Shown here in pieces: positions 1-31,795 of a DNA stretch of 32,000 nt (positions within the stretch are counted from its first letter, which is position 1; every line of letters begins with the position of its first letter). Position numbers and translations under genes: made by a program. This stretch comes from Okeania sp. Lineage in GTDB: Bacteria > Cyanobacteriota > Cyanobacteriia > Cyanobacteriales > Microcoleaceae. The notes under the pieces were generated by a model, which was given only the letters and a program-made list of their open reading frames with translations, had not been told where the DNA came from and did not search any database. The stretch covers positions 47,436 to 79,435 of the forward strand of contig NZ_JAYKGW010000171.1 in the NCBI RefSeq assembly GCF_035285525.1, read 5' to 3'.

Positions 1-3000
1 GATGTCAGTTATAAAGACTTAACAGATGGTGGTTATGAAGTCAAACTAGATAATTTTGATTTGCAGAAATTTGTCAAAGATACCACCAAAGTCGAGTTAC
101 CTATAGATGCCAAAGTAGATGATGCAGTAATTAAAATTACCAAAGTCACCAAAGGCGAGCAAGAGGTAAATAATTATGATATCAGCGGTAAGATAAATAA
201 CGCCGATGTCAGTTATAAAGACTTAACAGATGGTGGTTATGAAGTCAAATTTGATGACGAGTTAGACCTGAGTGCTGTGGTGAAGGCAGCAGCTAACGAT
301 CCTAATTTACCAATTCCTTCCCTCAGCTTAAATAAACCTAGTCTGACTTACAGCAAGGATGACTCTGAGACAAAATATAGTTTCACCCTGGCAGATGAGT
401 CATCAATTAGCTACACCAAAAAATCTAATAACGATTATGAGTTTATCGTAGATCATTTCCCCATTGGTAAATTAAGCGAATGGATTGACACTGATCTGGG
501 CATCTCTGGTGCTAGTGAAGTCTTTAAAGGGAACCTTGATGTTGAAATCAGCCCCAATAAGAAAGAAATAGTTTTAGATGGCACTGTAGATTTTGGCAAG
601 TTTATGAAACCGCTCATTAATTATGATGTTTCTTGGAAAGTTAATAAACCTACCTTAAGCTACACAACTCTAGGGGGAGAAACTAAATACAGTTTCTCAG
701 ATACGAGCAAATCTATTAGCTACGCCAAAGATGCTAAAGGGCAAACTACTTTTAAGGTTGATAACTTCCCAATAGGAGATATCGCTAATGTCGTTGCTAG
801 CGGACTAGGATTAAGCAGTAGTAATTTACCAAAATGGATAGTTGATGCGACAATCAGTCCCACTGAGAAGAGTTTAAGTGTTGATGGCGAAATTGCTGTC
901 AAAGACTTTGCAGACTTCGTAGGGTTAAATTTACCAGATGGATTAAATTTAAGTTTGAAAAACCCCAATCTTAGCGTCAAAGGGACAGATAAAAATAAGA
1001 GCTTCGATTTTTCAGGAACCGGGACACTGACTTTACCTAAAGACTCTTTTGATGATTTTACAGAAATTGCCGATTTGTTACCAGGTATAGAGGCAACAGC
1101 TTCAGGGTTAGAGGTATCGGGAGATATTGCAGTTAGCAAATTAAGCTCTGGTGATATTGGATTGCAATTGGGAGTGCCAGTGCTAGGAGCTATCCGGTTA
1201 GAGCGCGAAAACGATAAATGGAAATTAGCAGCTATAGAGGATGGCGATCGCCTAACCATAGCAGACTTAGGAGTAGTCGCCACCAACGACGAATACAGTT
1301 TTACAGATTTATTTAACTATGAATTTAAGGGTGATGCCAATCTGGGATTAAAAACCAAGACGAGCATAGAAGGTAACTCAGCTTTCCCTTCTTTTAATGT
1401 TGATATCGCTGCCGATCTACCTTTATTTAACTATGGCAGTCAGGAAGAAGCAGATGATCGAGGTTTCGATATTGCCTTCAATAATCTCGAAATCGACCTC
1501 GGCACCTTCTTGAGCGACCTTGCTAAACCTGTAGTCGTTGAAGTTGACAGAATTATCGATCCGATTAAGCCAGTTATTAAAGCTCTACAAGCTGATACTA
1601 AGTTACTGTCCAAATTAAAGTTAGAAAGCAAGTTTGATAAAGATGGAAAACCAGGTGTATCTATATTAGAGATTGCGGAAACACTACTTCCTGAAAACAA
1701 AAAAATACAAACAGCAATTACATTTGCCAAGACTGTCAGCGGAATAGTTGATACAGTTGATGCTTTAAATAAGCAGGAAGGCAATAAAAGAATTCCTTTA
1801 GGAAGCTACAATCTAGATGATTTTAAAGCTGCAAGTCAGGATGATGCTGATGATGCCAGCAAGAAGAGTGACTCCATTAAGTTAGATACAGATGATAAAT
1901 CGAAAGACACATCCGAGGATAAATCGAAAGATAAATCTACACCAGAAGAACAAGCAAAAGAAAATGAGGCTTATAAGTCATTTAGTTCTTTAGAAGGAAT
2001 TTCTATTCCTTTGATTGAGAAACCTATCAATGCAGCTTACTTGCTTTTAGGAAAAAATGTGGATTTGATTAAGTATGATATTCCCGATCTTGAATTTGGT
2101 TTTGAACTCAGCCAAAGTTTCCCCTTTTGGACTCCGCCTCTAATTTCCGGCAAATTAGGAGGAGGTATTACGGCGAAAACAGACCTAGCCATTGGTTTTG
2201 ATACTTACGGTGTTAATCAATGGTGGAAAAAATATAATTTCGATCCTGCTAAAGCTTATTTAGTATTTGATGGTTTCTACTTAGACGACTTTGACAAAGA
2301 CGGCAAGGATAAGCCGGAGTTCAGTTTGGACGGTGACATTAGTGCAGGCGTGAATGTCAGCATATTAGCCGCCTCTGCTGAAGTAAAAGGTGGTGTTGAT
2401 GGCAATGTTAGTTTTGATGTCGAAGATGTGGGCGAGAAAACTGGTAAAAACGATGGTAAAATCCGAGGTTCGGAAATTCTTTCTCGAATTAACGACCCAT
2501 TATCCTTATTTGAGCTTTACGGTAAGATCGATGCTTACCTCAAAGGAGAAGCTAAAGTTTTTGGTTTGGGAACAGTTTGGGAGAAAGAATTTGCTCGTTT
2601 CAACTTAGCAGAATTCCGTATCGACAAATCAGGTGCTAGTGCTTCCGCTATTGGTGGCAAATATTCTACCAGTTATATTGCTGATGCCACTATCTTCCTA
2701 GATGCCAACCTCAACGGATTACTAGACGACAATGAACCTGTCACCGTCACTGATAGCAATGGTAACTACAACCTAGAATTTGACATCGAATACTACGATA
2801 CTAACGGCAATGGAAAATTGGATGCAGAAGAAGGGCAAATAGTTGCCATGGGGGGTGTCGATACTTCCAGTGGCGTGAACATTACCACTCAAATGGTGGG
2901 CAGCGTAGAATCTGCAGTGCTAACACCTCTAACTAACCTACAAAAGTTTTTAGTCCAAGAAGAATATGTAGCATCTAACAAAGCAGCCGACAAACTGATG

Positions 3001-6000
3001 ACTGAGAAATTAGATTTACCAAAAGGAGGAAGTTTAGCAGACAACGACCCCATAGCTGATATTGGTGACGACCAAGGGTTAGTCCAGAAAGTAGGTGTAG
3101 AATTTTATCTAGCTCATGTGGAATTGCAAAATATCATCGTTCATGCTAACGCTTTGGTTCAAGGTGTTAATTCTGAAATTGATTCTATCTACTTAGAGAA
3201 AATCGTCACTCAAGGGTTAGCTGAAGCATTGACATCTGAGAAAGTAAGTTTCGACCTCAGCAATGCTGAGGATGTAGAATTTATATTAAAAGAAATTGCT
3301 GCACAAAGCACTAAACCAGATATTGCCAATGGTGAAGAAGAAGAAGGCACTAAACCAGATATTGCCAATGGTGAAGAGATATCTGCTGATATCATCGAAA
3401 CAGTAGCCGAAATGGTGGCTGAAGCTAACGCCCTCATTGATGAAATGGCAACCGCAGCAGAAAAACAAAGTCTCGAACTGGTGATGCCAACTGTTGCTCC
3501 CGTTAAGCGATCTACCCAAGGAGAACTGACGAAAATCACAAAAGAACTTGCTGCGGGCAAATCAACTCCCGAAACTGCACAAGAGCAATTTACAACCCAG
3601 CTAGAAGAAAGCAACCGGTTGGAGCCACAACTCATTAGTGATACTCGCAAGGTCAAAGTTTACTCCACAGGAGATGGGGAGATAGATGAAAACACTGGTA
3701 AAACTATTGACATCGTTATTGAATTAGGAGAACCAGCACCAAATCAAGGTGTGAATATTCTCTACAATATTTCCGGTACTGCTACCGAAGGGGAAGATTA
3801 TCAAATAGTAGGACTACCTAATGGTGGTTCCGAAATTTACATAGAACCAGGAGAAACTCAAAAAACTATAACTATCTCTCCCGAAAACGATGAGATTAGC
3901 GAGCTAACAGAATTTATCACTTTGAATCTCCGGTACGCAGCGGAAAGTTTTGTCATAGATTCGGAAATGCAAACTGCTGTGGTTCGGATTATTGATGATG
4001 AAGAACTAACAACTGGAGATCAACCAGAAGGAATATGGAAACCAGGAACAGTTGACGATGATACTTTAGTGGGCACAAAAAAACAAGACACCTTGAGTGG
4101 TAATTATGGTAACGACTCTATCAAGGGTAAGGCAGGTGCAGATGTCCTCCAAGGTAGTCATGGCAATGACACCATTATTGGTGGAACTGGTTCAGATGTT
4201 GTTGAAGGCAACTATGGCGATGACCTCCTTCAAGGAAACCAAGGAAATGACCAAATTCATGGGGGTTCTGGGGTAGATAGAATTTCCGGTGGTGCAGATA
4301 ACGATGACATTTATGGTGGTGCAGATGATGACAATATTTCTGGTGGTGCAGGCAATGACAATATTTCTGGTGATACAGGCAATGATAATATTTCTGGTGA
4401 TGCTAATAATGACTGGATACAAGGCGGTGTTGGTAACGATGTCATCACTGGTGGCGAAGGTCAAGATGTAGTCAATGGAGGTGATGGGGCAGATTACTTT
4501 GTCTTAAAATCTCCAGAGGAAGGATTAGATATAGTAGTTGACTTCGATCCGACTCAGGGTGACAAAATTATTATTGACTCTGCTGGTTTCAACAATCCTA
4601 CCCTGGAGGATTTCCAATTCCTCAATGGTTACTTGTATTTCCAAAAGCAACAAATTGCTCTGATCCAAAATGAAGGAGTTAGCTACAACTACTTCTCATA
4701 TTTATCAGAAATTCTGGAAATCAAAAACACTAAAACTCTGAAAACTCCGGTTAGTCCTAAAGTTACAATCCAAGAAACAGAGGGCGCTGAAGCAGAAGAA
4801 CCATCAACATCTTCTAATATTGTCTCTCGTAAAGAACCAGCCAATTTGTTCGCAGAAATATTACAGAGGGGTGTTGTCAAAGTGGGAGTTGTAAATAATC
4901 CCGTAGTTTATGAGGAACTAGAAGATGGAACAGCGCGGGGAACAGGTGCTGAATTGGGTAAAACATTAGCAAGTGCCCTGTTTGGTGATGAGAATGCAGT
5001 TGAGTATGTACTTTTAGACTTTAACCAAGGGTTTGAAGCAGTAGCTAACAAAGAAGTTGATATTCTAGATTCGGGAGCAACTTACAACCTAGTCAGAGAT
5101 GCTCTATTAGATATTGACTTTGCTCCAGTTCGCTTTTATGATAACGATGCAATAATTGTTAAAGCTGATAGGGATATTGATAATGCTCAAGAACTCCAAG
5201 GTTTGACTATTGGTGTATTTGCCGGTTCGACTACGGAGCAAAATCTCAAAGATTTCTTAGCCGAAAATAGTATAGAAGTTGAGATCATAAGCTTTAGTAG
5301 CAAGCAAGATATATTTGTATCTTATGATAACGGTGAGATAGATGCAGTAGCAAGCGATCGTACTGTTTTAGCAAGCTTGATTCCCACTTTCTCTAATCCC
5401 GACAACCACAAAATACTAGACGAAGAAATTTCGGAAGGACCTTTAGCACCAATCCTGCCAGAAAATGAATCAGAGTGGGCAGATGTGGTGCGTTGGGTAA
5501 CTTATGTACCTATTCAAGCTGAAGAATTTGCCATTACCTCTAAAAACATTGACCAAGTGAAAGCCGATAGCCAAGACCCAGCTATACGTCGCTTCTTAGG
5601 ATTAGGTGGCAATTTAGAAGGTAATTTAGGGGAAACCCTCGGTTTACCCGCAGACTTCGCAGAAAATGTAATTAAATCTGTTGGTAATTACGATGAAATA
5701 TATAAACGTGTTTTCCCTGGTTTAGAACGTAAACGCAACCATCTCTGGACTAACGAAGGTTTACATTACTCACTACCTTTCTCCGGTACAACAATTTCAT
5801 CAGAATTGATTAATAATGATGAACGAGGTCTTCTGCAGGAAATATTGGAGCGTGGTGTGGTAAATGTAGGTCTCCCTGGTAATAGTCCTGGTTTTGGTGA
5901 ACAAAGAGAAGGAGAATGGCAAGGCTTTGATGTTGATTTAGGTCGCGCATTAGCAGCAGCTTTATTTGGCGATCCTGATCGAGTTAATTTTGTGGAACAG

Positions 6001-7734
6001 GATTTTGCTAAGGGTTTCCCCAATGTAGCCAATGGTAAAGTAGATGTTTCGGCAATGGCTGTTTCCCACAACTTAGTACGAGATGCAGGTTTAGGTATCG
6101 ACTACGGTCCTACCTATCTCTATACCGGACAAGGAATATTAGTCAGAAATAATAGTGGTATCACTTCTTTGCCCATGTTAAATGGTCTGAGAATAGGAGT
6201 GGTAGCAGAAAGGACTACTAAGCAAAATCTGGAAGATAACTTGGCAAAAATAGGAGGTACCTTTGTTCCCGTAGAATTTAACAGCAATAAGGACCTGTTT
6301 GCTGCCTATGAAAGTAATGAAATAGATGCCCTAGCAACAGATTTAACGATTATTGCTACCAGGATTAATGATTTTTCTAATCCTTCGGAACATCGCATCT
6401 TAAATGAAGTCTTGTCTAAAGAACCTTTAGCATTAGTGATTGATGAAAATCAGTCAGACTGGGCAGATGTTGTCCGATGGGTGACTCATACTCTGGTACA
6501 AGCAGAAGAATTTGGCATTACTCAAGAAAATGTAGATGATGTTATTGCTAATAGCGAAAATCTCCAGATTCGTCGTTTCTTAGGTTTAGAAGAAAATATA
6601 GGCGAAACTCTAGGTTTACCTAAAGATTACGCGGTACAAATAATTAAAGCTGTGGGTAACTATGGGGAAGCTTACGATCGCCACTTTAATAAGTTTAATA
6701 GCAATATTTTGCCTCGGGGTACTAACGAATTATTGAGCGACTTTGGCTTACAATATGCTTATCCTTTGGGAGTACCTCCAGTTACTGAAGATGAACCAAC
6801 TGTCCCTATTCAGGAAGACTCTTCGCCACAACAACAAGATGATGAAATTGATGCTGCTGATACTACCACACCTGATGAGACTGAAGATACAGAGACGTCT
6901 GATGAAACTCAAGACACAGAGGATACTACGTCTGATGAGACTGAAGATACAGAAAGTACCATATCTGATGAGACTGAAGATACAGAAAATACCTCAACTC
7001 TAGAAGATGAAACAGGAGAACAGACAACTCTCGACCCTAATGATGGACAAGAGTCTATAGAAGAGGAAGTAGAAGCAGGTCAAGTTACAATAGGTACTGA
7101 TGGTAGCAATACTTTGTCAGGCGGTTCGGACAATAATGTGCTTTACGGTATGCGGGATGACGATGTGCTTTATGGTAATGCAGGAGAGGACACTACTTAT
7201 GGTGGTAAAGGGAATGACCTAATTATTGGAGGCGACGGTGACGACCTTCTTTATGGAAATAATGACAATGATACTATTGAAGGTGAAGGGGGTAACGATG
7301 AAGTTCATGGTAATCGTGGATTAGATTTTATTAATGGTGGCGATGGTGACGATCTACTTTATGGTGGTAAAGATTCTGATCGTATTTTGGGAGGTGCAGA
7401 TAACGACACTATCTTTGGCGATCAGGGTAATGACTTATTAGAAGGTAATGAAGGGGATGATTTGATTGATGGTGGTGAGGGAGATAATACTCTTAGTGGT
7501 GGTCAGGGTGGCGATCGCTTTGTATTAGCTCCAGGTAACAGCAATCTGATTCTAGATTTTGAGGATGGTATTGATTTCTTACAGCTTGAAGATGGTATTG
7601 CTTTTGAGGATTTGACTTTAACTGAAGAATCAGGAAACACTGTGGTTGAGTTGAACTCGGAACGCTTGGCTATTGTTTCGGGGGTAGCTTCTGGTTTGCT
7701 AACAGCAGAAGATTTTCTCATTGCTGAAAGTTAA
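1..7734 (+). CDS. Giant secreted multidomain protein, 5'-partial (repeat modules / Calx-beta / RTX / 2x solute-binding domain / acidic repeats / RTX plus C-terminal tail)
   Basis: Frame 1 is open from nt 1, and the listed start at 61 is only the first TTG. Stop is TAA 7732-7734. The ORF contains GGxGxD nonapeptide runs, a Calx-beta-like segment and AapJ-like segments in one uninterrupted 7.7-kb reading frame. Confidence 0.9.
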   Translation, partial: DVSYKDLTDGGYEVKLDNFDLQKFVKDTTKVELPIDAKVDDAVIKITKVTKGEQEVNNYDISGKINNADVSYKDLTDGGYEVKFDDELDLSAVVKAAANDPNLPIPSLSLNKPSLTYSKDDSETKYSFTLADESSISYTKKSNNDYEFIVDHFPIGKLSEWIDTDLGISGASEVFKGNLDVEISPNKKEIVLDGTVDFGKFMKPLINYDVSWKVNKPTLSYTTLGGETKYSFSDTSKSISYAKDAKGQTTFKVDNFPIGDIANVVASGLGLSSSNLPKWIVDATISPTEKSLSVDGEIAVKDFADFVGLNLPDGLNLSLKNPNLSVKGTDKNKSFDFSGTGTLTLPKDSFDDFTEIADLLPGIEATASGLEVSGDIAVSKLSSGDIGLQLGVPVLGAIRLERENDKWKLAAIEDGDRLTIADLGVVATNDEYSFTDLFNYEFKGDANLGLKTKTSIEGNSAFPSFNVDIAADLPLFNYGSQEEADDRGFDIAFNNLEIDLGTFLSDLAKPVVVEVDRIIDPIKPVIKALQADTKLLSKLKLESKFDKDGKPGVSILEIAETLLPENKKIQTAITFAKTVSGIVDTVDALNKQEGNKRIPLGSYNLDDFKAASQDDADDASKKSDSIKLDTDDKSKDTSEDKSKDKSTPEEQAKENEAYKSFSSLEGISIPLIEKPINAAYLLLGKNVDLIKYDIPDLEFGFELSQSFPFWTPPLISGKLGGGITAKTDLAIGFDTYGVNQWWKKYNFDPAKAYLVFDGFYLDDFDKDGKDKPEFSLDGDISAGVNVSILAASAEVKGGVDGNVSFDVEDVGEKTGKNDGKIRGSEILSRINDPLSLFELYGKIDAYLKGEAKVFGLGTVWEKEFARFNLAEFRIDKSGASASAIGGKYSTSYIADATIFLDANLNGLLDDNEPVTVTDSNGNYNLEFDIEYYDTNGNGKLDAEEGQIVAMGGVDTSSGVNITTQMVGSVESAVLTPLTNLQKFLVQEEYVASNKAADKLMTEKLDLPKGGSLADNDPIADIGDDQGLVQKVGVEFYLAHVELQNIIVHANALVQGVNSEIDSIYLEKIVTQGLAEALTSEKVSFDLSNAEDVEFILKEIAAQSTKPDIANGEEEEGTKPDIANGEEISADIIETVAEMVAEANALIDEMATAAEKQSLELVMPTVAPVKRSTQGELTKITKELAAGKSTPETAQEQFTTQLEESNRLEPQLISDTRKVKVYSTGDGEIDENTGKTIDIVIELGEPAPNQGVNILYNISGTATEGEDYQIVGLPNGGSEIYIEPGETQKTITISPENDEISELTEFITLNLRYAAESFVIDSEMQTAVVRIIDDEELTTGDQPEGIWKPGTVDDDTLVGTKKQDTLSGNYGNDSIKGKAGADVLQGSHGNDTIIGGTGSDVVEGNYGDDLLQGNQGNDQIHGGSGVDRISGGADNDDIYGGADDDNISGGAGNDNISGDTGNDNISGDANNDWIQGGVGNDVITGGEGQDVVNGGDGADYFVLKSPEEGLDIVVDFDPTQGDKIIIDSAGFNNPTLEDFQFLNGYLYFQKQQIALIQNEGVSYNYFSYLSEILEIKNTKTLKTPVSPKVTIQETEGAEAEEPSTSSNIVSRKEPANLFAEILQRGVVKVGVVNNPVVYEELEDGTARGTGAELGKTLASALFGDENAVEYVLLDFNQGFEAVANKEVDILDSGATYNLVRDALLDIDFAPVRFYDNDAIIVKADRDIDNAQELQGLTIGVFAGSTTEQNLKDFLAENSIEVEIISFSSKQDIFVSYDNGEIDAVASDRTVLASLIPTFSNPDNHKILDEEISEGPLAPILPENESEWADVVRWVTYVPIQAEEFAITSKNIDQVKADSQDPAIRRFLGLGGNLEGNLGETLGLPADFAENVIKSVGNYDEIYKRVFPGLERKRNHLWTNEGLHYSLPFSGTTISSELINNDERGLLQEILERGVVNVGLPGNSPGFGEQREGEWQGFDVDLGRALAAALFGDPDRVNFVEQDFAKGFPNVANGKVDVSAMAVSHNLVRDAGLGIDYGPTYLYTGQGILVRNNSGITSLPMLNGLRIGVVAERTTKQNLEDNLAKIGGTFVPVEFNSNKDLFAAYESNEIDALATDLTIIATRINDFSNPSEHRILNEVLSKEPLALVIDENQSDWADVVRWVTHTLVQAEEFGITQENVDDVIANSENLQIRRFLGLEENIGETLGLPKDYAVQIIKAVGNYGEAYDRHFNKFNSNILPRGTNELLSDFGLQYAYPLGVPPVTEDEPTVPIQEDSSPQQQDDEIDAADTTTPDETEDTETSDETQDTEDTTSDETEDTESTISDETEDTENTSTLEDETGEQTTLDPNDGQESIEEEVEAGQVTIGTDGSNTLSGGSDNNVLYGMRDDDVLYGNAGEDTTYGGKGNDLIIGGDGDDLLYGNNDNDTIEGEGGNDEVHGNRGLDFINGGDGDDLLYGGKDSDRILGGADNDTIFGDQGNDLLEGNEGDDLIDGGEGDNTLSGGQGGDRFVLAPGNSNLILDFEDGIDFLQLEDGIAFEDLTLTEESGNTVVELNSERLAIVSGVASGLLTAEDFLIAES
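331..1200 (+). repeat. Three tandem ~104-aa modules inside the giant ORF
   Basis: Units begin NKPSLTY (331), NKPTLSY (643) and KNPNLSV (958). The first two share ETKYSF, SISY.K, F.VD.FPIG and ISP..K...DG motifs. Period is 312-315 nt. Confidence 0.6.
3652..4005 (+). other. Calx-beta-like domain of the giant protein
   Basis: VKVYSTGDGE...ISGTATEGEDYQIV...IEPGETQKTITISPENDEISELTEFITLNL...VVRIIDDE matches the Calx-beta pattern GTA..G.DY...F..GE..K.......D...E..E.F. Confidence 0.7.
4056..4506 (+). other. RTX block 1 (about 14 haemolysin-type Ca-binding nonapeptides)
   Basis: GNYGNDSIKGKAGADVLQGSHGNDTIIGGTGSDVVEGNYGDDLLQGNQGNDQIHGG...GGDGADYFVL, with a 27-nt DNA periodicity. Confidence 0.85.
4846..5785 (+). 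other. Solute-binding (AapJ/BztA-like, SBP_bac_3-type) domain 1
   Basis: LQRGVVKVGV...ELGKTLASALFGD...VEYVLLDFNQGFEAVANKEVDIL...TYNLVRD...ISEGPLAPILPENESEWADVVRWVTYVPIQAEEFAITSKNIDQV...IRRFLGL...GLPADFAENVIKSVGNYDEIY...GLHYSLPF, recalled as similar along the domain length to general L-amino-acid-binding proteins. Confidence 0.75.
5830..6771 (+). other. Solute-binding (AapJ/BztA-like) domain 2
   Basis: LERGVVNVGLPGNSPGFGEQREGEWQGFDVDLGRALAAALFGDPDRVNFVEQDFAKGFPNVANGKVDV...SHNLVRDAGLGIDYGPTYLYTGQGILVR...LSKEPLALVIDENQSDWADVVRWVTHTLVQAEEFGITQENVD...IKAVGNYGEAYDRHF...GLQYAYPL. It is a paralogue of domain 1. Confidence 0.8.
6775..7075 (+). repeat. Acidic Thr/Asp/Glu-rich linker with 33-36 nt repeats
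   Basis: The DNA unit tctgatgagactgaagatacaga recurs, giving (T/S)DETEDTE repeated at the protein level. Confidence 0.7.
7093..7525 (+). other. RTX block 2 followed by a C-terminal non-repeat tail (7526-7731)
   Basis: GGSDNNVLYGMRDDDVLYGNAGEDTTYGGKGNDLIIGGDGDDLLYGNNDNDTIEGEGGNDEVHGN...GGQGGDRFVL. Terminal placement is typical of type I secretion substrates. Confidence 0.85.
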
Positions 7735-7740
7735 AGTAAT

Positions 7741-7843
7741 TAGGACTTACGCAAAGAAACCGGGTTTCTAGGATAAATTGTTGTTTTGAGCAATAGACGT
7801 CTACCCTCGTACCGGGTTTCTGGGTTCACTTGCGTAAGTCCTG
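7741..7843. mobile_element. MITE-like element, copy 1 (103 bp)
   Basis: Termini are TAGGACTTACGCAAAG...CACTTGCGTAAGTCCTG. Flanking direct repeats AGTAAT lie at 7735-7740 and 7844-7849. The interior has AGAAACCGGGTTTCT-type palindromes, and the left repeat abuts the TAA stop of the giant gene. Confidence 0.85.
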
Positions 7844-12318: not shown

Positions 12319-12367
12319 TAGACATCCTCAAAAATTAAAAATATCATCAATTAGTCTCCCCTATTCC
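12319..12367. repeat. Copy of the GGGAAYAGGGA / TTTTTGGAGATGTCT small repeat family (reverse orientation)
   Basis: tagacatcctcaaaaattaaaaatatcatcaattagtctcccctattccc parallels 15638-15679, 20313-20392 and 28966-29033. Confidence 0.6.
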
Positions 12368-12466
12368 CAGTTAAGTGTTCCCTGTTTCCTAGCGCCTAGC
12401 GCTATAATTACTCCCCCCTATTCCCAGTTAAGTGTTCCCTGTTCCCTAGCGCCTAGCGCCATAACT
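12356..12466. repeat. Tandem 55-nt duplication immediately upstream of potB
   Basis: ctcccctattcccagttaagtgttccctgtttcctagcgcctagcgctataatta (12356-12410) is repeated at 12411-12466 with few changes. The second copy ends 4 nt before the potB ATG. Confidence 0.85.
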
Positions 12467-16374: not shown

Positions 16375-16465
16375 CAGGACTTACACAAAGGTACTATGTA
16401 TAGAGTTCAAAAACTATTGTCCAATAGTTTTGGGCTCTATATATAGCGTCTCTGCGTAAGTCCTG
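16375..16465. mobile_element. MITE-like element, copy 2 (91 bp)
   Basis: Termini are CAGGACTTACAC...CTGCGTAAGTCCTG, with an inner hairpin AAAACTATT-gtcc-AATAGTTTT. No clear TSD. Sits between the divergent rluE and hydrolase starts. Confidence 0.7.
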
Positions 16466-18052: not shown

Positions 18053-18590
18053 GTTATTTAAAAGTCTGACTATTAGTAATTGATTATTGAATGTACTGAT
18101 TTTAATTTCCAATCATATTGATAACTTCCAAGTTTAGAAGTTATAAGTGAACTATCCAGGGAAAATTTAATCCATGACTAAACTAAGTTCTGGAAACTAT
18201 AGTGACTCTTTATTATAGTAAAAAAAGCTAGTATTAGGTTTGTAATATAGCAATTTTCAATAGGTTCCAATATTTTATAGTAGGGGTTTAGTATCCAAAC
18301 CTTAGCAAAATGGGATTTGGAAACTCCATCCCCACAGTTTTTTTTCACAAATTATTTTTGATACTTATACTAAGCAACTTCTGTTTTTTAATCGTGTAAC
18401 ATTTTTCTCATAAGTCAGACATATTAATAAGTTATTAAATTACTTATATTATGTACCCTTTAGTCTTTTTAGAAGTTACTCAAAATTTCAAATTTTATAT
18501 CTTAGGGAGTAGGGAGTAGTTAAAAGTATTAATAGGTTTGAGTTTTCATTTTTTCCTAACTAAGTTATTTCCCAAAAATTCTATTATTTT

Positions 18591-18748
18591 CAGGACTTAC
18601 ACGGGAGGCACTATATATGGAGTATTGCTCAGTTACGACATACGCTTTACATGTCCCGTAGCGTTTCGGCGCTTGAGCCGACATATAAAGCGGAGCTTTG
18701 CGGAACGCAAAACACACCCTACCCATAGCGTTCATGGCTTTAGTCCTG
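18591..18748. mobile_element. MITE-like element, copy 4 (158 bp)
   Basis: Left end is CAGGACTTACAC and the variant right end is CATAGCGTTCATGGCTTTAGTCCTG. TSD ATTTT at 18586-18590 and 18749-18753. Confidence 0.85.
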
Positions 18749-18936
18749 ATTTTTTTATTAGAACTTACGCAAAGAAAGGCACTGATAGATAGGTTCTTGG
18801 TGCGTTACCAAGTCCGCTTTTCATGTCCCGTAGCGTTTCGGCGCTTGAGCCGACATATAAAGCGGAGCTTTGCGGAACGCAAAACACACCCTACTGGACT
18901 TTTTCATCTTAAATGGTGCATTAGAAAATGGGAGAT

Positions 18937-18966
18937 GGGGTGATGGAGGGGGATGGGGGGATGGGG
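18937..18966 (+). other. G-quadruplex-forming motif
   Basis: GGGG-tgatgga-GGGGG-at-GGGGGG-at-GGGG gives four G-runs of at least 4 with loops of 7 nt or less. Confidence 0.6.
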
Positions 18967-19041: not shown

Positions 19042-19311
19042 TCTACCTTGTCTACCTTATCTACCTTATCTACCTTGTCTACCTTATCTACCTTGTCTAC
19101 CTTATCTACCTTATCTACCTTGTCTACCTTATCTACCTTATCTACCTTATCTACCTTGTCTACCTTATCTACCTTGTCTACCTTATCTACCTTGTCTACC
19201 TTATCTACCTTGTCTACCTTATCTACCTTGTCTACCTTGTCTACCTTATCTACCTTGTCTACCTTATCTACCTTATCTACCTTATCTACCTTATCTACCT
19301 TGTCTACCTTA
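19042..19311. repeat. Tandem nonamer array, 30 perfect copies of TCTACCTTR
   Basis: Counted unit by unit. Position 9 reads G A A G A G A A G A A A G A G A G A G A G G A G A A A A G A. A degenerate tail runs to about 19335. The array is flanked by inverted repeat ACTGACACAC (19008-19017) and GTGTGTCAGT (19360-19369). Confidence 0.95.
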
Positions 19312-19401
19312 TCTACCTGTCCTCCTTGTCTACCCATAACCAAAAAGTAACGCACCATTGTGTGTCAGTCCACTATAGTGTTCATGGGTAAGTCCTATCT
19401 A

Positions 19402-20268
19402 TTACATACGCAAACTTTTTGACCAGCGTTGACGATGTATTTCATAAATGGCCATACCAGTTGCTACTGATACATTTAAACTAGGGGTACTTCCCGACAT
19501 TGGTATAGAAACTAAGACGTCACAGTTTTTTTGAATAAGAAGACTTAAACCCTCTGCTTCGCTACCAACAACTAAAACAATAGCTCCGGTAAATTTTATG
19601 GTATGGATAGGTTCCCCATCATTTGCCACAGTACCATATATCCAGAAACCCTCTTTCTTCAACTCTTCCAAAGCATTGCTAAGATTAACAACTCTAGCTA
19701 CAGGAAAATTTTCTAAGGCTCCTGCTGCAACTTTGGTCACAGTGGAAGTTATTCCCACGGCTCGTCTTTGTGGAATAATTAAACCTTGTATTCCCAGAGC
19801 TTCTGCAGTACGAATAATGGCTCCTAAATTATGAGGATCGTTGAGACCATCAGCTACCAACAATACAGGTTGCTCGGTTTTGGATTTTGCTTGAGATATT
19901 AATTCGTGAAGTTCTTTATACTGATAAGGACATACTTGAGCTGCTATACCCTGATGATTTTTTCTATGGGTAATTTGAGTTAAGCGTCGATCGTCTACTT
20001 CATCTATAATTGTACCTTTGGTTTTCGCTTCATTTAGTAATGTATGAAACCGGGGATCGTATCGCAGTGGAGGAATAATCCAAATTCGGTTTAAATATCG
20101 TTCACTCTGGAGAGCAGCTTGCACACTATGTCGTCCGTAGATTAAATCATCATTTTCGTCATTGATATTTGTGGAACTATCATTTTTGGGCTGTATATCT
20201 TTTAGTTTAATTTGTTTCTTTTTTTGCGGTTTTTCTTGAGAATTTAATTTCAAATTTTTCGTAGACAT
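19402..20268 (-). CDS. rlmB: 23S rRNA (guanosine-2'-O)-methyltransferase, SpoU/TrmH family
   Basis: [11 protein letters not shown] substrate-binding region plus SpoU motifs [23 protein letters not shown] and [22 protein letters not shown]. Confidence 0.85.
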
Positions 20269-23420: not shown

Positions 23421-23641
23421 TAAATCCTATTTCAGATTTCGTTTAGAGACCAAACCTTTACAGTTTTTTTTGAGAAATTTCTTCATCAGGACTTACGCAA
23501 AGGCTCTATATACAGAGTATAGGTGCGTTACGCTACGCTTTTCATATCGCGCAGCGAAACGCACCCTACCAATAGCTAAATCCTATTTTAGATTTCGTTT
23601 GGAGACCAAACCCTTACAGTTTTTTTTAGAAGTTTCTTCAT
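23421..23641. repeat. Two 65-66-nt direct repeats flanking a truncated MITE
   Basis: taaatcctatttcagatttcgtttagagaccaaacctttacagttttttttgagaaatttcttcat (23421-23486) recurs at 23577-23641 with a few substitutions. Confidence 0.85.
23487..23576. mobile_element. MITE-like element, copy 6, right end missing (90 bp)
   Basis: CAGGACTTACGCAAAGGCTCTATATACAGAG...GCACCCTACCAATAGC. It stops where other copies continue to GTTCATGGCTTTAGTCCT. Confidence 0.7.
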
Positions 23642-23747: not shown

Positions 23748-23842
23748 CAGGACTGACGCAAGTGCAATGTATTTTCGTCCGATACGACGGTCGGGAAGCA
23801 ATCTCAAACCCCTGTTTTTCGTACCTCATGGCTTTAGTCCTC
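23748..23842. mobile_element. MITE-like element, copy 7a (95 bp)
   Basis: CAGGACTGACGCAAGTGCAATGTATTTTCG...CCTCATGGCTTTAGTCCTC. Looks closely similar to copy 10 (27123-27215) over its full length by eye. Confidence 0.75.
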
Positions 23843-23852
23843 ATCATATTAA

Positions 23853-23971
23853 CAGGACTAAAGCCATGAGGAGCGGAATTTTCTTGGCTTGAGATTGCTA
23901 TCCTGACGGACTGCTTCGCCAACGCTCCTCGCGGGCAATGACAGAAATACGTTGCGCGTGCGTAAGTCCTA
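23853..23971. mobile_element. MITE-like element, copy 7b (119 bp)
   Basis: Variant left end CAGGACTAAAGCCATGAGG and right end GCGTGCGTAAGTCCTA. The interior ttgagattgctatcctgacggactgc is shared with copy 13. Only 10 nt separate it from copy 7a. Confidence 0.7.
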
Positions 23972-24096: not shown

Positions 24097-24759
24097 ATGA
24101 TGGAAAATTTTTCACTCTATAATTCTACTAATAGAAGTCTATTTAAGCAAATTAAGCAAAATTTTCAACAGCAACAACAGGTTAAAACTATTTTTGGGAA
24201 AATACCATCCATATTATTAACAACATTTATTTGTACCACAGCGATCGCTCAAGAATATCCAGGATGTTTTATACTTGACCAAGCTGGCAATAGGAAAGAT
24301 TTAACCATATCAATTTGTAATCTATCTGTAGAAGAATTATCAGAACAAGTATCAACTTCAACAACTACAGTAGCAGGAATATATCAAATACCAATCAAAA
24401 GTCGTCGCGGAGGTAGTCCGGTAATTGATGTTACTTTTAATGGTAATCAAACTTATGAAATGATTTTAGATACTGGTGCAAGTTCTACTTTAATTACTCA
24501 AGAAATGGCAAAAACTCTCAAAGTTATAACTTTAGAAAAAAGAAATTTTACTTTAGCGGATGGCAAAGATGTACAATTAGGGGTTGGCAAAGTTGGTTCT
24601 ATTTCTGCGGGAGGTTTAACACTTAGCCAATTTGATGTTGCTGTTGCTCCTACAGATGCAGATCAAGAATTAGGGTTACTGGGGCAAAATTTTTTTGGCT
24701 CCTATGATATAACCATCAAGGAAAATGTAGTAGAATTGAAGGTACGTTCTGGTGGTTAG
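24097..24759 (+). CDS. Retropepsin-like (clan AA) aspartic protease with N-terminal anchor
   Basis: Catalytic ILDTGASSTLIT, a hydrophobic N-terminal segment ILLTTFICTTAIA and a poly-Q run. Confidence 0.75.
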   Translation: MMENFSLYNSTNRSLFKQIKQNFQQQQQVKTIFGKIPSILLTTFICTTAIAQEYPGCFILDQAGNRKDLTISICNLSVEELSEQVSTSTTTVAGIYQIPIKSRRGGSPVIDVTFNGNQTYEMILDTGASSTLITQEMAKTLKVITLEKRNFTLADGKDVQLGVGKVGSISAGGLTLSQFDVAVAPTDADQELGLLGQNFFGSYDITIKENVVELKVRSGG

Positions 24760-26115: not shown

Positions 26116-26270
26116 TAGGACTTACCCATGGGGAAGGAAATTTAAAGGTTTGAGATTGCTTTCGGTCTGGAATGCGGAGCATTCATGTCGCGGAGCGCAA
26201 AACGCTGTGGCTTGCGCTTCCCAAAGCTGCGCTGACACAATGACAAAATTGCGTTTATGCGTAAGTCCTG
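26116..26270. mobile_element. MITE-like element, copy 9 (155 bp)
   Basis: TAGGACTTACCCATGGGG...TTATGCGTAAGTCCTG, with TSD TTTAT at 26111-26115 and 26271-26275. Confidence 0.85.
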
Positions 26271-26314
26271 TTTATAAGTTATTGCGCAGATTGTTGTTCA
26301 AACCAGAAAATTTA

Positions 26315-26345
26315 TGCAAAGAAACCCGGTTTCTGCGTAAATCCT
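26315..26345. mobile_element. Collapsed MITE remnant
   Basis: GCAAAGAAACCCGGTTTCTGCGTAAATCCTG keeps the palindrome module and right end but lacks the AGGACTTAC left end. Ends 7 nt from the stop of the 26353 gene. Confidence 0.5.
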
Positions 26346-27215: not shown

Positions 27216-27380
27216 TATAGATTAACAGCACTAATAGATAGATGGGCATTACAGCAATTTTCATTTCAGTAGACCAAAGTAGAGAGCTTGCATAAGGGCG
27301 TCCCTGCAAGGTTGTGGTTATGGCTCCAGTCCGGTGGTTCATCAAGAGTGAAAAGCGCTGTAGGGCGGGTTTATGTAAAT

Positions 27381-27451
27381 TAGGACTTACGCAAAGAAAC
27401 CCGATTTCTAGGCTCGTACCGGGTTTCTGGGTTCGCGTGGCTTTAGTCCTG
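27381..27451. mobile_element. MITE-like element, copy 11 (71 bp)
   Basis: TAGGACTTACGCAAAGAAACCCGATTTCTAGG...GCGTGGCTTTAGTCCTG, with TSD TAAAT at 27376-27380 and 27452-27456. It interrupts a paralogue of the 23281-23407 palindrome. Confidence 0.9.
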
Positions 27452-27539
27452 TAAATCTTAAGAGTAAACATTAAAATTCTAGCTAAAAACTGCTCCTACT
27501 ATTGGGTGGGTGAGACACTCCCTGTACTTCTATAATCAA

Positions 27540-27659
27540 CAGGACGCAAAGGCACTATATATAGCGTCTTGCTCAGTTACGAGATACGCTTTACATGTCG
27601 CGTAGCGTTAGCGGAACGCAAAACACACCCTACCAGTAACGTTCATGGCTTTAGTCCTA
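27540..27659. mobile_element. MITE-like element, copy 12 (120 bp, left end lacks TTAC)
   Basis: CAGGACGCAAAGGCACTATATATAGCG...AACGTTCATGGCTTTAGTCCTA, with TSD ATCAA at 27535-27539 and 27660-27664. The right TSD contains the stop codon of the adjacent gene. Confidence 0.85.
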
Positions 27660-27660
27660 A

Positions 27661-28959
27661 TCAAGTTTCTTTCGGACGAGATACAGAAGTAGGAAACATT
27701 TGCTTAAACCGAATACGTCGCTCTTGGGGTGAGTCTGGAGTCATATAACTCCATAAAGTTTCCCAATAGAAAAAAGATACACCGGCAAAGTTGCGATCGC
27801 GTACTGCTTGCACTTGTTCTTGAATTTTCTCAATTCTCATAGTGGTTTTTAAGGTTCCTGCGAGAATACCAATACTAAAAGGAATTTTATTTCTAGTATT
27901 TTTGACAGGAGGTTGTTCCAACTCTTCTACAAATGAAGATAAACCATCTCTATACACCTGCAAAATAAATTCATCTACAAAACCTCTCTCGATCCAAGTT
28001 TGCCAGTCTTGTAAATATAAATTGTAGGAAAAATCATAAGGATTAGAAGATACAGAGACAATACAGTTGGGTTTAACAGCTTTGATAGATTTATAAAGTC
28101 TTTCCAGGAAGGCAGTAATTTGATTCGCTCGCCATTGCATCCATTCTGGGTTGGTAAAATCTTCTGGAGGATTTTTCCCTTGATGTTGTTGCCGATAAAG
28201 TTGTACTGTAACCGGATCGTAGCCAAATTGTACTGGCATTCCGAAGCGATCGTCTACTTGGATGCCATCGACATCGTATTTTTGCACAACTTCTAATATT
28301 AACTCTAGAATAAAGTTTTGCACCTGGGGATTAATAGGATTCAGCCAAACATTGTTGATGGAGAGTGACTGCTGAAGTTGGTTTAATAAAGATTTTTCAT
28401 CTGATTCCGGGAGTAAATCTTTTAATTCTAATTCAAATATACTTTCAGAAAAATTGCTGTTTTTGTCAATGCTCGTTGTTACCCAATGGGGATGACGTTT
28501 GACTAATACAGAATTGACTGGGGCCATGAAACCATATTCAAACCAAGGGATAACTCGGAGACCTTGGCGATGAGATTGTTTAAATATTTCTTTGAGTACA
28601 TCTCGCCCCAGACGAAATAAAGCTAAAGTAGAGTCTTGAGATTTACCTGTAACTTTTTTGGCGACTTTACTTGGGTAAAAGGTGTTACCCCGGTTCCAGG
28701 TTACGGGATAAACTGTGTTGAAATTGAGTTGAGAAAGTTGACGGAGAGCGCGATTAATTGCCCAAGGAGTGAATAATACACTACTGCTAACGTTGGTGAT
28801 CCAGACTCCCCGCACTTCTTTTTCTGTTGTGATTTTGGCATTGACTGGAGTTGGAGGGGTTAATATTGTGCTGAGGGCAATGGAGAGGATAGCGATCGCT
28901 ACTCCTACGACTAGACATATTTTTAATTGTTTTAATTTATGATTAATTTTATTAGTCAT
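27661..28959 (-). CDS. Glycoside-hydrolase-like family 10 (GHL10/DUF187) protein with signal anchor
   Basis: N-terminal TM segment ICLVVGVAIAILSIAL. EVRGVWITNV...LNFNTVYPVTWNRGNTFYPS...VIPWFEYGF...VWLNPINPQVQNF...DGIQVDDRFG follows the GHL10 pattern. Confidence 0.8.
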   Translation of the reverse strand: MTNKINHKLKQLKICLVVGVAIAILSIALSTILTPPTPVNAKITTEKEVRGVWITNVSSSVLFTPWAINRALRQLSQLNFNTVYPVTWNRGNTFYPSKVAKKVTGKSQDSTLALFRLGRDVLKEIFKQSHRQGLRVIPWFEYGFMAPVNSVLVKRHPHWVTTSIDKNSNFSESIFELELKDLLPESDEKSLLNQLQQSLSINNVWLNPINPQVQNFILELILEVVQKYDVDGIQVDDRFGMPVQFGYDPVTVQLYRQQHQGKNPPEDFTNPEWMQWRANQITAFLERLYKSIKAVKPNCIVSVSSNPYDFSYNLYLQDWQTWIERGFVDEFILQVYRDGLSSFVEELEQPPVKNTRNKIPFSIGILAGTLKTTMRIEKIQEQVQAVRDRNFAGVSFFYWETLWSYMTPDSPQERRIRFKQMFPTSVSRPKET

Positions 28960-30027: not shown

Positions 30028-30224
30028 CAGGACTTACGCATGAGGAACGAAATTTCAAGGTTTGAGGTTGCTATCCTGACGGACTGCGACCCATTCATGT
30101 CGCGGAGCGAAACTCTGTCGCTGGCGCAGCGCCAGCGCAGCGCTTTTCATGTCGCGTAGCGTTTTATGTCGGCTCAAGCGCCGAAAACGCAATAACGGCA
30201 ATACCTTATTTTGCGTAAGTCCTA
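30028..30224. mobile_element. MITE-like element, copy 13 (197 bp)
   Basis: CAGGACTTACGCATGAGGAACG...TTATTTTGCGTAAGTCCTA, with TSD TAAAT at 30023-30027 and 30225-30229. Confidence 0.85.
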
Positions 30225-31668: not shown

Positions 31669-31795
31669 CAGAACTTACGATAAAGAAACCCGGTTTCTAG
31701 GTTCCTCCGCCAAGAAACCGGGTTTCTAAGTTCTCCCGCCAAGAAACCCGACTTCTAAGTTCCCCCGCCAAGAAACCGGGTTTCTAGATTCGCCT
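31669..31795. mobile_element. MITE-like element, copy 14, with expanded internal unit and no recognisable right end
   Basis: The left end is CAGAACTTACGATAAAGAAACCCGGTTTCTAGG. It is followed by tandem 29-nt units. Confidence 0.6.
31683..31794. repeat. 3.9 tandem copies of a 29-nt unit
   Basis: Unit 1 is aagaaacccggtttctaggttcctccgcc (31683-31711), unit 2 aagaaaccgggtttctaagttctcccgcc (31712-31740) and unit 3 aagaaacccgacttctaagttcccccgcc (31741-31769). A partial fourth unit runs to 31794. Confidence 0.9.

Follow-up and report, generated by a model that had tools for sequence, protein, structure and literature searches.

Mobile DNA of about 20 nt stands at the lower size limit of anything that can be called an element. 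To our knowledge, the only described case is that of the small dispersed repeats (SDRs) of Nostoc, reported in 2008, which are still without a mechanism and have been thought to belong to a single lineage. Elhai and colleagues reportedly distinguished, in that year, SDR1 to SDR8 of Nostoc punctiforme and its relatives, which are said to be 21–27 nt long, in some families with hairpins, and to lie embedded in mini-transposons, in tandem repeats and in copies of the same family. Their insertion is precise, with SDR5 entering between the third and fourth base of the palindrome HIP1 (PMC4390886), and the SDRs have been reported as restricted to Nostocaceae (PMC5861425). The subject of this analysis is a 23-nt unit in a stretch of 32,000 nt from Okeania sp. 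(assembly GCF_035285525.1, contig NZ_JAYKGW010000171.1, positions 47,436–79,435; hereafter the window). [quoted passage not shown] With it, a family comparable to the SDRs probably comes into view in the Okeania/Dapis/Trichodesmium clade, beyond Nostocaceae.

Other small repeats are better understood. Repetitive extragenic palindromes (REPs) and REPINs are short extragenic imperfect palindromes with a tag beside the stem, mobilised by RAYT transposases of the Y1 HUH type, and in Escherichia coli mosaics of this kind are known as bacterial interspersed mosaic elements (BIMEs). Insertion sequences of the IS200/IS605 group move by single-strand "peel and paste" transposition, with TTAC as the target of IS608 and TTGAT as that of ISDra2.

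The unit is a discrete module of 23 nt with the consensus TCGGCGCTTGAGCCGA+CAT(G/A)(A/T/G)A(A/T). Clustering of the flanks places it in at least 16 distinct contexts in the window and related genomes, and in 16 of 16 its 5' end abuts GTT or GTTT; GTT has a background frequency of 0.018 per position. Eleven contexts have the tail CATGAAA, and the other five a variant that differs by one base. The 3' flank is looser, with AGCG in six contexts, CGCT or CGCG in six and other sequences in four. No other recognisable module is present on either side of the unit in three contexts (L129, L132 and the L125/L138/L140/L141 group).

Outside the window, these contexts come from about 250 kb of related DNA of Okeania, Dapis and "Trichodesmium" metagenome-assembled genomes, in which loci are numbered with the prefix L. 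A metagenome scan with the query TCGGCGCTTGAGCCGACAT returned 25 loci, comprising 16 low-GC contigs of the Okeania/Dapis/Trichodesmium clade and nine chance matches in high-GC DNA. A scan of a genome collection with the bare 16-mer core returned at least four Okeania and at least three Dapis loci, while the other listed matches were mostly due to chance in high-GC genomes. One more locus was contributed by an unbiased orthologous locus of Dapis. Among the matches listed, the exact unit occurs only in this clade. Neither the unit nor the MITE had a cyanobacterial match among the plasmids of PLSDB; in viral contigs the unit and the short modules described below had no matches and the anchor only chance ones, and no Rfam family matched the window.

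Empty counterparts were sought by joining both flanks of each unit and searching with the joined sequence. Outside the window copies discussed below, this search revealed five empty/filled pairs (Table 1), and in all of them GTT or GTTT is retained in the empty site. Neither a target duplication nor, on inspection, microhomology is present at the junctions of the five pairs. The retained motif and the lack of duplication and microhomology speak for a site-specific process and are at odds with slippage during replication. Short modules of 17 nt, related to the unit, also act as indels, as evidenced by two pairs. The modules are gained or lost as exact blocks, and GTT or GTTT is kept in the empty sites.

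The proposal that a smaller element occupies a preferred site within larger repeats is borne out by the 16 contexts and the five pairs. A check suggested with the original prediction was whether the unit also occurs outside MITEs with duplications of its own: it is found outside these MITEs, and the empty/filled pairs show no duplication. The original prediction had set a mobile unit against one confined to the window contexts in a single orientation within a longer consensus. The unit is not confined in this way, and its polarity is indeed fixed, but relative to the GTT or GTTT target.

The CATG of the unit tail provides an ATG on either strand. At L129 (2829–2851), an open reading frame (ORF) of 236 aa mechanically starts at the ATG of the unit; at L140 (420–438), an ORF of 97 aa starts at the ATG on the other strand. 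At L132 (5679–5697), a stop codon on the strand of the unit precedes it by about 30 nt.

Within the window, the states absent, forward and reverse at the anchor were confirmed by pattern search. An exact search for the core TCGGCGCTTGAGCCGA returned three matches (18666–18681 and 18838–18853 on the plus strand, 30169–30184 on the minus strand) against 0.06 expected, a number reached by none of 100 shuffles. The anchor CATGTCSCGTAGCGTT is present exactly at 18650, 18822, 27594 and 30148, always on the plus strand, and in degenerate form at 26184 and 30096, that is, in six matches against 0.18 expected. The feature is real and non-random. The exact sites belong to the MITE copies numbered 4, 5, 12 and 13 in the original prediction. 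In copy 12 (27594–27609), the anchor runs directly into AGCGGAACGCAAAAC, representing the empty state; the sequence right after the anchor at 27594 is AGCGGAACGC. A contig of 2.2 kb (L110), the one record returned for the GHL10 protein of the window, is identical to the window over an 86-nt overlap at this copy.

Copies 4 and 5 do carry the unit, as predicted, but do not count as two cases. A block of 73 nt (18650–18722 and 18822–18894) is identical between them, indicating that they represent one event, although their left arms are only about 68% alike. The comparison of copy 12 with copy 4 can be read, as originally suggested, as indels of 23 nt and 10 nt, the latter a duplication, while MAFFT prefers a single gap of 33 nt with one substitution. 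In copy 13, the unit had been described as lacking 2 nt. This was an artefact of parsing: the TT at 30162–30163 belongs to the unit tail, so that the unit is complete, and its tail differs from the CATATAA tail of copies 4 and 5 by one substitution.

The anchor, taken in the original prediction as a landmark of the MITE, is another module of the same family as the unit and is also found outside these MITEs. Read on the opposite strand it becomes AACGCTACGCGACATGAAAAGCG, a short sibling of the unit. A census of GACATGAAA-like tails revealed a common layout: (C)GTT(T), a small hairpin, CATGAAA and then, often, AGCG. The short modules consist of CGC-NNN-GCG followed by ACATGAAA, with the loops TAC, TGC, TTC, TCC or GGA. 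Long hairpins are represented by TCGGC-GCTTGA-GCCGA (the unit itself), TCGGC-TAAGA-GCCGA and TCGGCG-CTT-CGCCGA, and the stems found in the family are TCGC/GCGA, TCGGC/GCCGA and TCGGCG/CGCCGA. The stem is exchanged wholesale between subfamilies while the tail remains constant, a pattern expected of recognition of a hairpin together with a single-stranded tag. On the plus strand of copy 4, the arm CGCTTTACATGTC of the anchor module pairs with GACATATAAAGCG (18680–18692), and the anchor arm and the unit tail together form a REPIN-like long hairpin (-13.2 kcal/mol). On balance, the unit probably belongs to a family of dispersed modules, very small and each bearing a hairpin, in the Okeania/Dapis/Trichodesmium clade of marine filamentous cyanobacteria.

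Two other descriptions were tried and rejected. A REP tagged with GTAG does not describe the anchor, as the GTAG inside it is a variable loop in which GCAG, GGAG and GAAG also occur. A tiny MITE with CGCTTTTCATGTC...GACATGAAAAGCG ends does not serve as a general model, since inverted pairs are rare. A further state of the site is found in a composite element of about 370 nt (L078, ~4190–4560; bounds GTAGGGGC...GCCCCTAC), which consists almost entirely of short G+C modules and includes an exact anchor copy (CATGTCGCGTAGCGTT) followed by AACGTTTGCGGAGC.

The arrangement of unit and anchor was counted at 26 anchor-type modules in about 250 kb, in a data set gathered by searching for the unit, so that the frequencies of the states are biased. 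The unit is absent at 16 of them. At eight, it lies on the opposite strand and directly abuts the anchor module, head-to-tail as in copy 13; at two, copies 4 and 5 only, it is on the same strand as the anchor, in an inverted arrangement. The tandem of the copy 13 type thus accounts for 8 of the 10 unit-bearing anchors. The composite of copy 13 is 83–96% identical over 45–61 nt to sequences at loci of the relatives (L060, L122, L123, L128, L134, L136, L137, L139, L143 and L144), indicating an inherited or recurrent standard arrangement rather than a local flip. In the window, GTTT^CGCTNCGCGACATGAAA (the caret marks the junction) at 23536–23570 is the empty form of this class.

In copies 4 and 5, the unit interrupts a 13-nt insert (in copy 12, TTAGCGGAACGCA) and follows GCGTT^ of the plus strand; in copy 13, it follows GTTT^ of the minus strand. 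The unit stands either way round relative to the anchor because GTT is present on both strands of the near-palindrome GCGTT..AACGC; relative to its own GTT target, the polarity of the unit is fixed in both placements. The 13-nt insert is absent from the element at 23485, which shows the nesting of unit in insert in MITE to be real. Hence the three-level nesting that had been proposed exists, with the levels borne out by the alignment being the MITE, the 13-nt insert and the unit.

The carriers of the unit in the window are MITEs with ends like those of ISPlag1, a member of the IS701 group. The terminal inverted repeat of ISPlag1 from Planktothrix is 29 bp long, CAGGACTTACGCAAGCACGCTATATATAG (PMC2464740), and is matched by the window ends of the AGGACTTACGCA type; at one such end (16453–16464), 26 of 29 positions match by eye. 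Twenty ends of the type (C)AGGACTTACGCA are present in the window, often extended by GC(A/T)CTATATATAG. The host elements are non-coding, 90–210 bp long and end in CAGGACTTACGCA...GC(T/A)CTATATATAG.

Table 1. Positions of host elements, units and related modules in the window, and empty/filled pairs of unit sites
Feature	Location	Strand	Description
Unit (23 nt), copy 4	18666–18688	+	TCGGCGCTTGAGCCGA (hairpin TCGGC-GCTTGA-GCCGA) with tail CATATAA; directly 3' of GCGTT
Unit (23 nt), copy 5	18838–18860	+	Within the block 18822–18894, identical to 18650–18722
Unit (23 nt), copy 13	30162–30184	-	TCGGCGCTTGAGCCGACATAAAA; preceded by GCGTTT, followed head-to-tail by the anchor module
Anchor module, copy 4	18643–18665	-	AACGCTACGGGACATGTAAAGCG, a small hairpin with CATGTAA and AGCG
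Anchor module, copy 5	18815–18837	-	..CGCTACGGGACATGAAAAGCG (minus strand)
Anchor module, copy 12	27587–27609	-	AACGCTACGCGACATGTAAAGCG; empty site between 27609 and 27610 (GCGTT^AGCGG)
Anchor module, copy 13	30141–30161	-	CGCTACGCGACATGAAAAGCG; directly downstream of the unit, in its orientation
13-nt insert TTAGCGGAACGCA	27608–27620	+	In copy 12; expanded in copies 4 and 5, where it encloses the unit; absent from the element at 23485
Further short module, same MITE as copy 13	30087–30109	-	CGCTCCGCGACATGAAT
Short module inside MITE 26117–26269	26176–26197	-	CGCTCCGCGACATGAAT
Short module without unit	23536–23570	-	GGTAGGGTGCGTTT^CGCTGCGCGATATGAAAAGCG; empty counterpart of filled sites in L137 and L060/L136/L139
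Host MITE, copy 4	18590–18750	+	Left end CAGGACTTACAC..GGCACTATATATGG; right end ..GGCTTTAGTCCTG
Host MITE, copy 5	18760–18894	+	Truncated on the right
Host MITE, copy 12	27537–27661	+	Copy 4 family; no unit; degenerate left end
Host MITE, copy 13	30029–30223	+	Different internal family (related to 26117–26269); same AGGACTTACGCA ends
Empty/filled pair	L137 vs window 23543–23570		Exact difference of 23 nt
Empty/filled pair	L062 vs L109		Exact difference of 23 nt
Empty/filled pair	L123 vs L129		Exact difference of 23 nt
Empty/filled pair	L142 vs L122/L123/L136		Exact difference of 23 nt
Empty/filled pair	L144 vs L122/L136		Exact difference of 23 nt

The anatomy of the modules suggests, as the most likely mechanism, hairpin-guided single-strand insertion 3' of GTT. 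The most likely agent would be a trans-acting enzyme that operates on single-stranded DNA and reads the hairpin together with short flanking motifs; HUH/Y1 transposases, of the IS200/IS605 or RAYT type, fit this profile. Since the GTT target would survive insertion, repeated hits at one spot would build head-to-tail arrays, a layout seen in copy 13 and at most sites in the relatives. Where GTT is present on both strands of a near-palindromic G+C-rich site, a module could land either way round, and copies 4 and 5 may be such a case. The arrays would then be carried passively inside the ISPlag1-type MITEs. We assign a probability of about one in four to the reading that the unit and its short relatives are the smallest substrates (17–23 nt) of a hairpin-guided, HUH-type single-strand system, in which modules with an interchangeable hairpin and a constant CATGAAA end insert 3' of GTT, regenerate the target and form arrays that colonise MITEs. 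If true, it would provide a concrete, testable mechanism for the long-unexplained "very small mobile repeats" of cyanobacteria and carry these beyond Nostocaceae.

Several observations weigh against the general explanation of the modules and their insertion. No candidate for the enzyme was found in the window or in the ~250 kb of related DNA, in which a tblastn search with an approximate IS200 TnpA query had no match, a negative that carries no weight; a Pfam scan of 20 window ORFs revealed only housekeeping and transport genes, with no transposase or recombinase. The unit is a single hairpin, while canonical IS200/IS605 elements have two different hairpin ends, and the hairpins of the family are weak singly, being no better than those of shuffled sequence (z = -0.4 to -0.6). 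The empty/filled pairs show presence or absence and not the direction of the change, which could be insertion or precise excision, and the bias of the state frequencies mentioned above applies here as well. Moreover, the indel between copy 12 and copies 4 and 5 may comprise 33 nt instead of 23, and L142 has the junction GACATATAAAGCGGAGCTTTGCG of copies 4 and 5 as well, there after another module. These two facts make block transfer by recombination possible for copies 4 and 5.

Such transfer is central to the explanation that an old vocabulary of G+C-rich repeat pieces, similar to BIMEs, is reshuffled among its many copies through gene conversion and recombination, homologous or illegitimate, the unit being exchanged with its neighbours and having no dedicated mobility. 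The 33-nt block favoured by MAFFT and the junction shared with L142 both agree with it, as do the different module sets that the orthologous spacer of the relatives holds at one spot, and the identical core of copies 4 and 5 between divergent left arms resembles the outcome of conversion or patch transfer. However, the five pairs differ by the same exact 23 nt with flanks that otherwise match, and their junctions are devoid of visible microhomology. The contexts in L129, L132 and the L125 group offer no neighbouring module as homology for an exchange, and the strict rule of a 5' GTT, kept in all 16 contexts, is not expected of a homology-driven process. We regard shuffling of this kind as an unlikely explanation, while the identical 73-nt block and the junction shared with L142 point to some of it. 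A lower probability still is given to a route through RNA, reportedly proposed by Elhai and colleagues in 2008 for the SDRs of Nostoc, in which the transcribed module, as a small structured RNA, would enter DNA at preferred sites by reverse transcription or reverse splicing. Both the precision of insertion, with no target duplication, and the fixed polarity are compatible with this route, but the data fit a DNA-level route equally well, the hairpin is weak, Rfam provides no match in the window, and neither a reverse transcriptase nor an intron-like feature is present near any copy; the route appears improbable.

The inversion of a segment, the other mechanism offered in the original prediction, has fared worst. 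In this scheme, a site-specific recombinase, or else hairpin-mediated strand switching, would flip the unit in place between the arms GCGTT and AACGC, and both orientations relative to the anchor do exist, with a 5-bp inverted repeat, GCGTT..AACGC, flanking the unit in copy 13. This repeat is far shorter than those of known invertases, though, and no recombinase gene is present in the window. The two orientations are located in different host elements and at different positions relative to the anchor module (junctions GCG^AAAC against GCGTT^AGCGG), the supposedly reversed state of copy 13 is the standard arrangement and is kept in the relatives, and the extra AGCGGAGCTTTGCGGA of copies 4 and 5 is not a product of flipping. 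An inversion is thus very hard to credit.

The window is chromosomal and carries housekeeping genes, including carA, trpD, rlmB and those of an ABC transporter, a pseudouridine synthase and an aminotransferase. Its RlmB (19402–20268) is 91–92% identical to that of Dapis sp. BLCC M126/M229, Okeania sp. SIO2F4, Hydrocoleum sp. CS-953 and "Trichodesmium sp. MO_231.B1", and the gene order around rlmB is syntenic with those relatives. An origin in Nostoc, which HIP1 sites and the AGGACTTACGCA ends might suggest, is contradicted by these RlmB homologues. The MITEs at 18590–18894 are absent from the orthologous rlmB-DUF1816 spacer of L146, L147, L149 and L150, of which L149 and L150 are identical in this spacer. 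Hence no comparison site exists in these relatives for the state of the unit at the same MITE, as their spacers lack the MITEs altogether. In the same spacer, differing sets of G+C-rich modules follow CCA(A/G)CCGTTT at a single orthologous spot in L146 (10868–11792), L147 (10868–11671) and L149 (10868–11815): CGCTGCGCGTTATATCTCGCGGAGCG in L147, GCGCAGCG in L149 and a string of about 90 nt in L146. The site is thus hypervariable in its modules, while RlmB of these species is about 91% identical.

Other repeats are present near the MITE pair of copies 4 and 5 and elsewhere in the window. Between the pair and rlmB, at 19042–19318 and extending to about 19380, there are approximately 31 tandem copies of the 9-mer TCTACCTT(A/G) with 92% matches; ORFs overlying this array are mechanical only, and the orthologous spacer of the relatives lacks it. 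A heptamer run, GGGAGTA GGGAGTA (18505–18520), and a G-rich run, GGGAGATGGGGTGATGGAGGGGGATGGGGGGATGGGGTGA (18925–18965), flank the pair and are similar to the STRR-type short tandem repeats of cyanobacteria. The palindrome AAGAAACCCGGTTTCT is the basis of a second repeat family (31683–31794, 7738–7832, 27378–27439 and 26303–26337), in which a 29-mer is repeated 3.6 times in tandem at 31683 and which also supplies the core of short MITEs that have AGGACTTACGCA ends. Inside a larger composite element (23749–23970), two MITE right-end motifs placed face to face make up a near-perfect palindrome, TCATGGCTTTAGTCCT-CATCATATTAAC-AGGACTAAAGCCATGA (23826–23869). A tandem duplication of 57 nt (12349–12464, 93% identical), containing CCCTATTCCC-type heptamers and TAGCGCCTAGCGC, separates the gene of the solute-binding protein from the first permease gene of the ABC transporter.

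Two coding features also stand out. A giant plus-strand ORF of at least 2557 aa (61–7734), whose start is probably upstream of the window, has internal repeats with periods of 204, 33 and 27 nt and lacks a Pfam match over its first 980 aa. A protein of 220 aa encoded at 24097–24759 on the plus strand contains an aspartyl protease domain of the retroviral (gag-associated) type and occupies the same position in L146, L147, L149 and L150.

The facts that the unit and its siblings add to the subject of very small repeats are the GTT rule and a design that combines a variable hairpin with a constant tail. Nested modules of this kind make intergenic regions of these genomes hypervariable and difficult to assemble or to align.

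Among described systems, the SDRs are most similar in size class, 21–27 nt against 23 nt, and in dispersal, with at least 16 contexts of the unit. Precise presence or absence, seen in the five exact 23-nt pairs and in copy 12 against copies 4 and 5, and the position of the unit inside ISPlag1-type MITEs and in head-to-tail arrays of family members are further points of likeness. This likeness is one of described traits; in the open literature, a search for the SDR sequences and for motif strings matched only the ISPlag1 repeat. The two differ in distribution, the SDRs being reported as limited to Nostocaceae and the exact unit being found only in the Okeania/Dapis/Trichodesmium clade. We know of no description, for SDRs, of a shared CATGAAA tail behind interchangeable hairpins, of a 5' GTT rule or of head-to-tail arrays.

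With REPs, REPINs and BIMEs, the modules share the form of short, extragenic and imperfect palindromes, a conserved unpaired tag beside the stem and the occurrence as singles, pairs and mosaics with other short motifs. However, neither GTAG nor CGTC is conserved as a tag (GTAG, GCAG, GGAG and GAAG vary), and the conserved tag, CATGAAA, stands 3' of the hairpin. Direct tandems dominate, with 8 of the 10 unit-anchor pairs, and inverted doublets are represented by copies 4 and 5 only. No RAYT gene was seen in the ~250 kb of related DNA with an approximate Y1 query. IS200/IS605 elements and the derived palindrome-associated transposable elements (PATEs) resemble the unit in polar insertion directly 3' of a short motif (here GTT or GTTT), in the absence of target duplication, in the regeneration of the target at the left flank and, as would follow for the unit from its anatomy, in recognition of a hairpin instead of terminal inverted repeats. 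Unlike the 23-nt unit with its one hairpin, they have two distinct hairpin ends and, even as PATEs, a length of at least about 100 nt. ISPlag1-type MITEs provide the shell only, as the unit has no terminal inverted repeats and is also found outside them. Invertase switches differ in that the junctions of the unit are not the same between states, the inverted repeat is 5 bp long and the Pfam scan of the window ORFs was without a recombinase.

Overall, REP/REPIN, BIME and IS200/IS605-PATE systems are mechanistic analogues of which the unit lacks defining features in each case, and the SDRs of Nostoc are the precedent that comes nearest. In a lineage for which the literature searched contained no such repeats, the modules add a new family to a kind of very small repeat that is already known.

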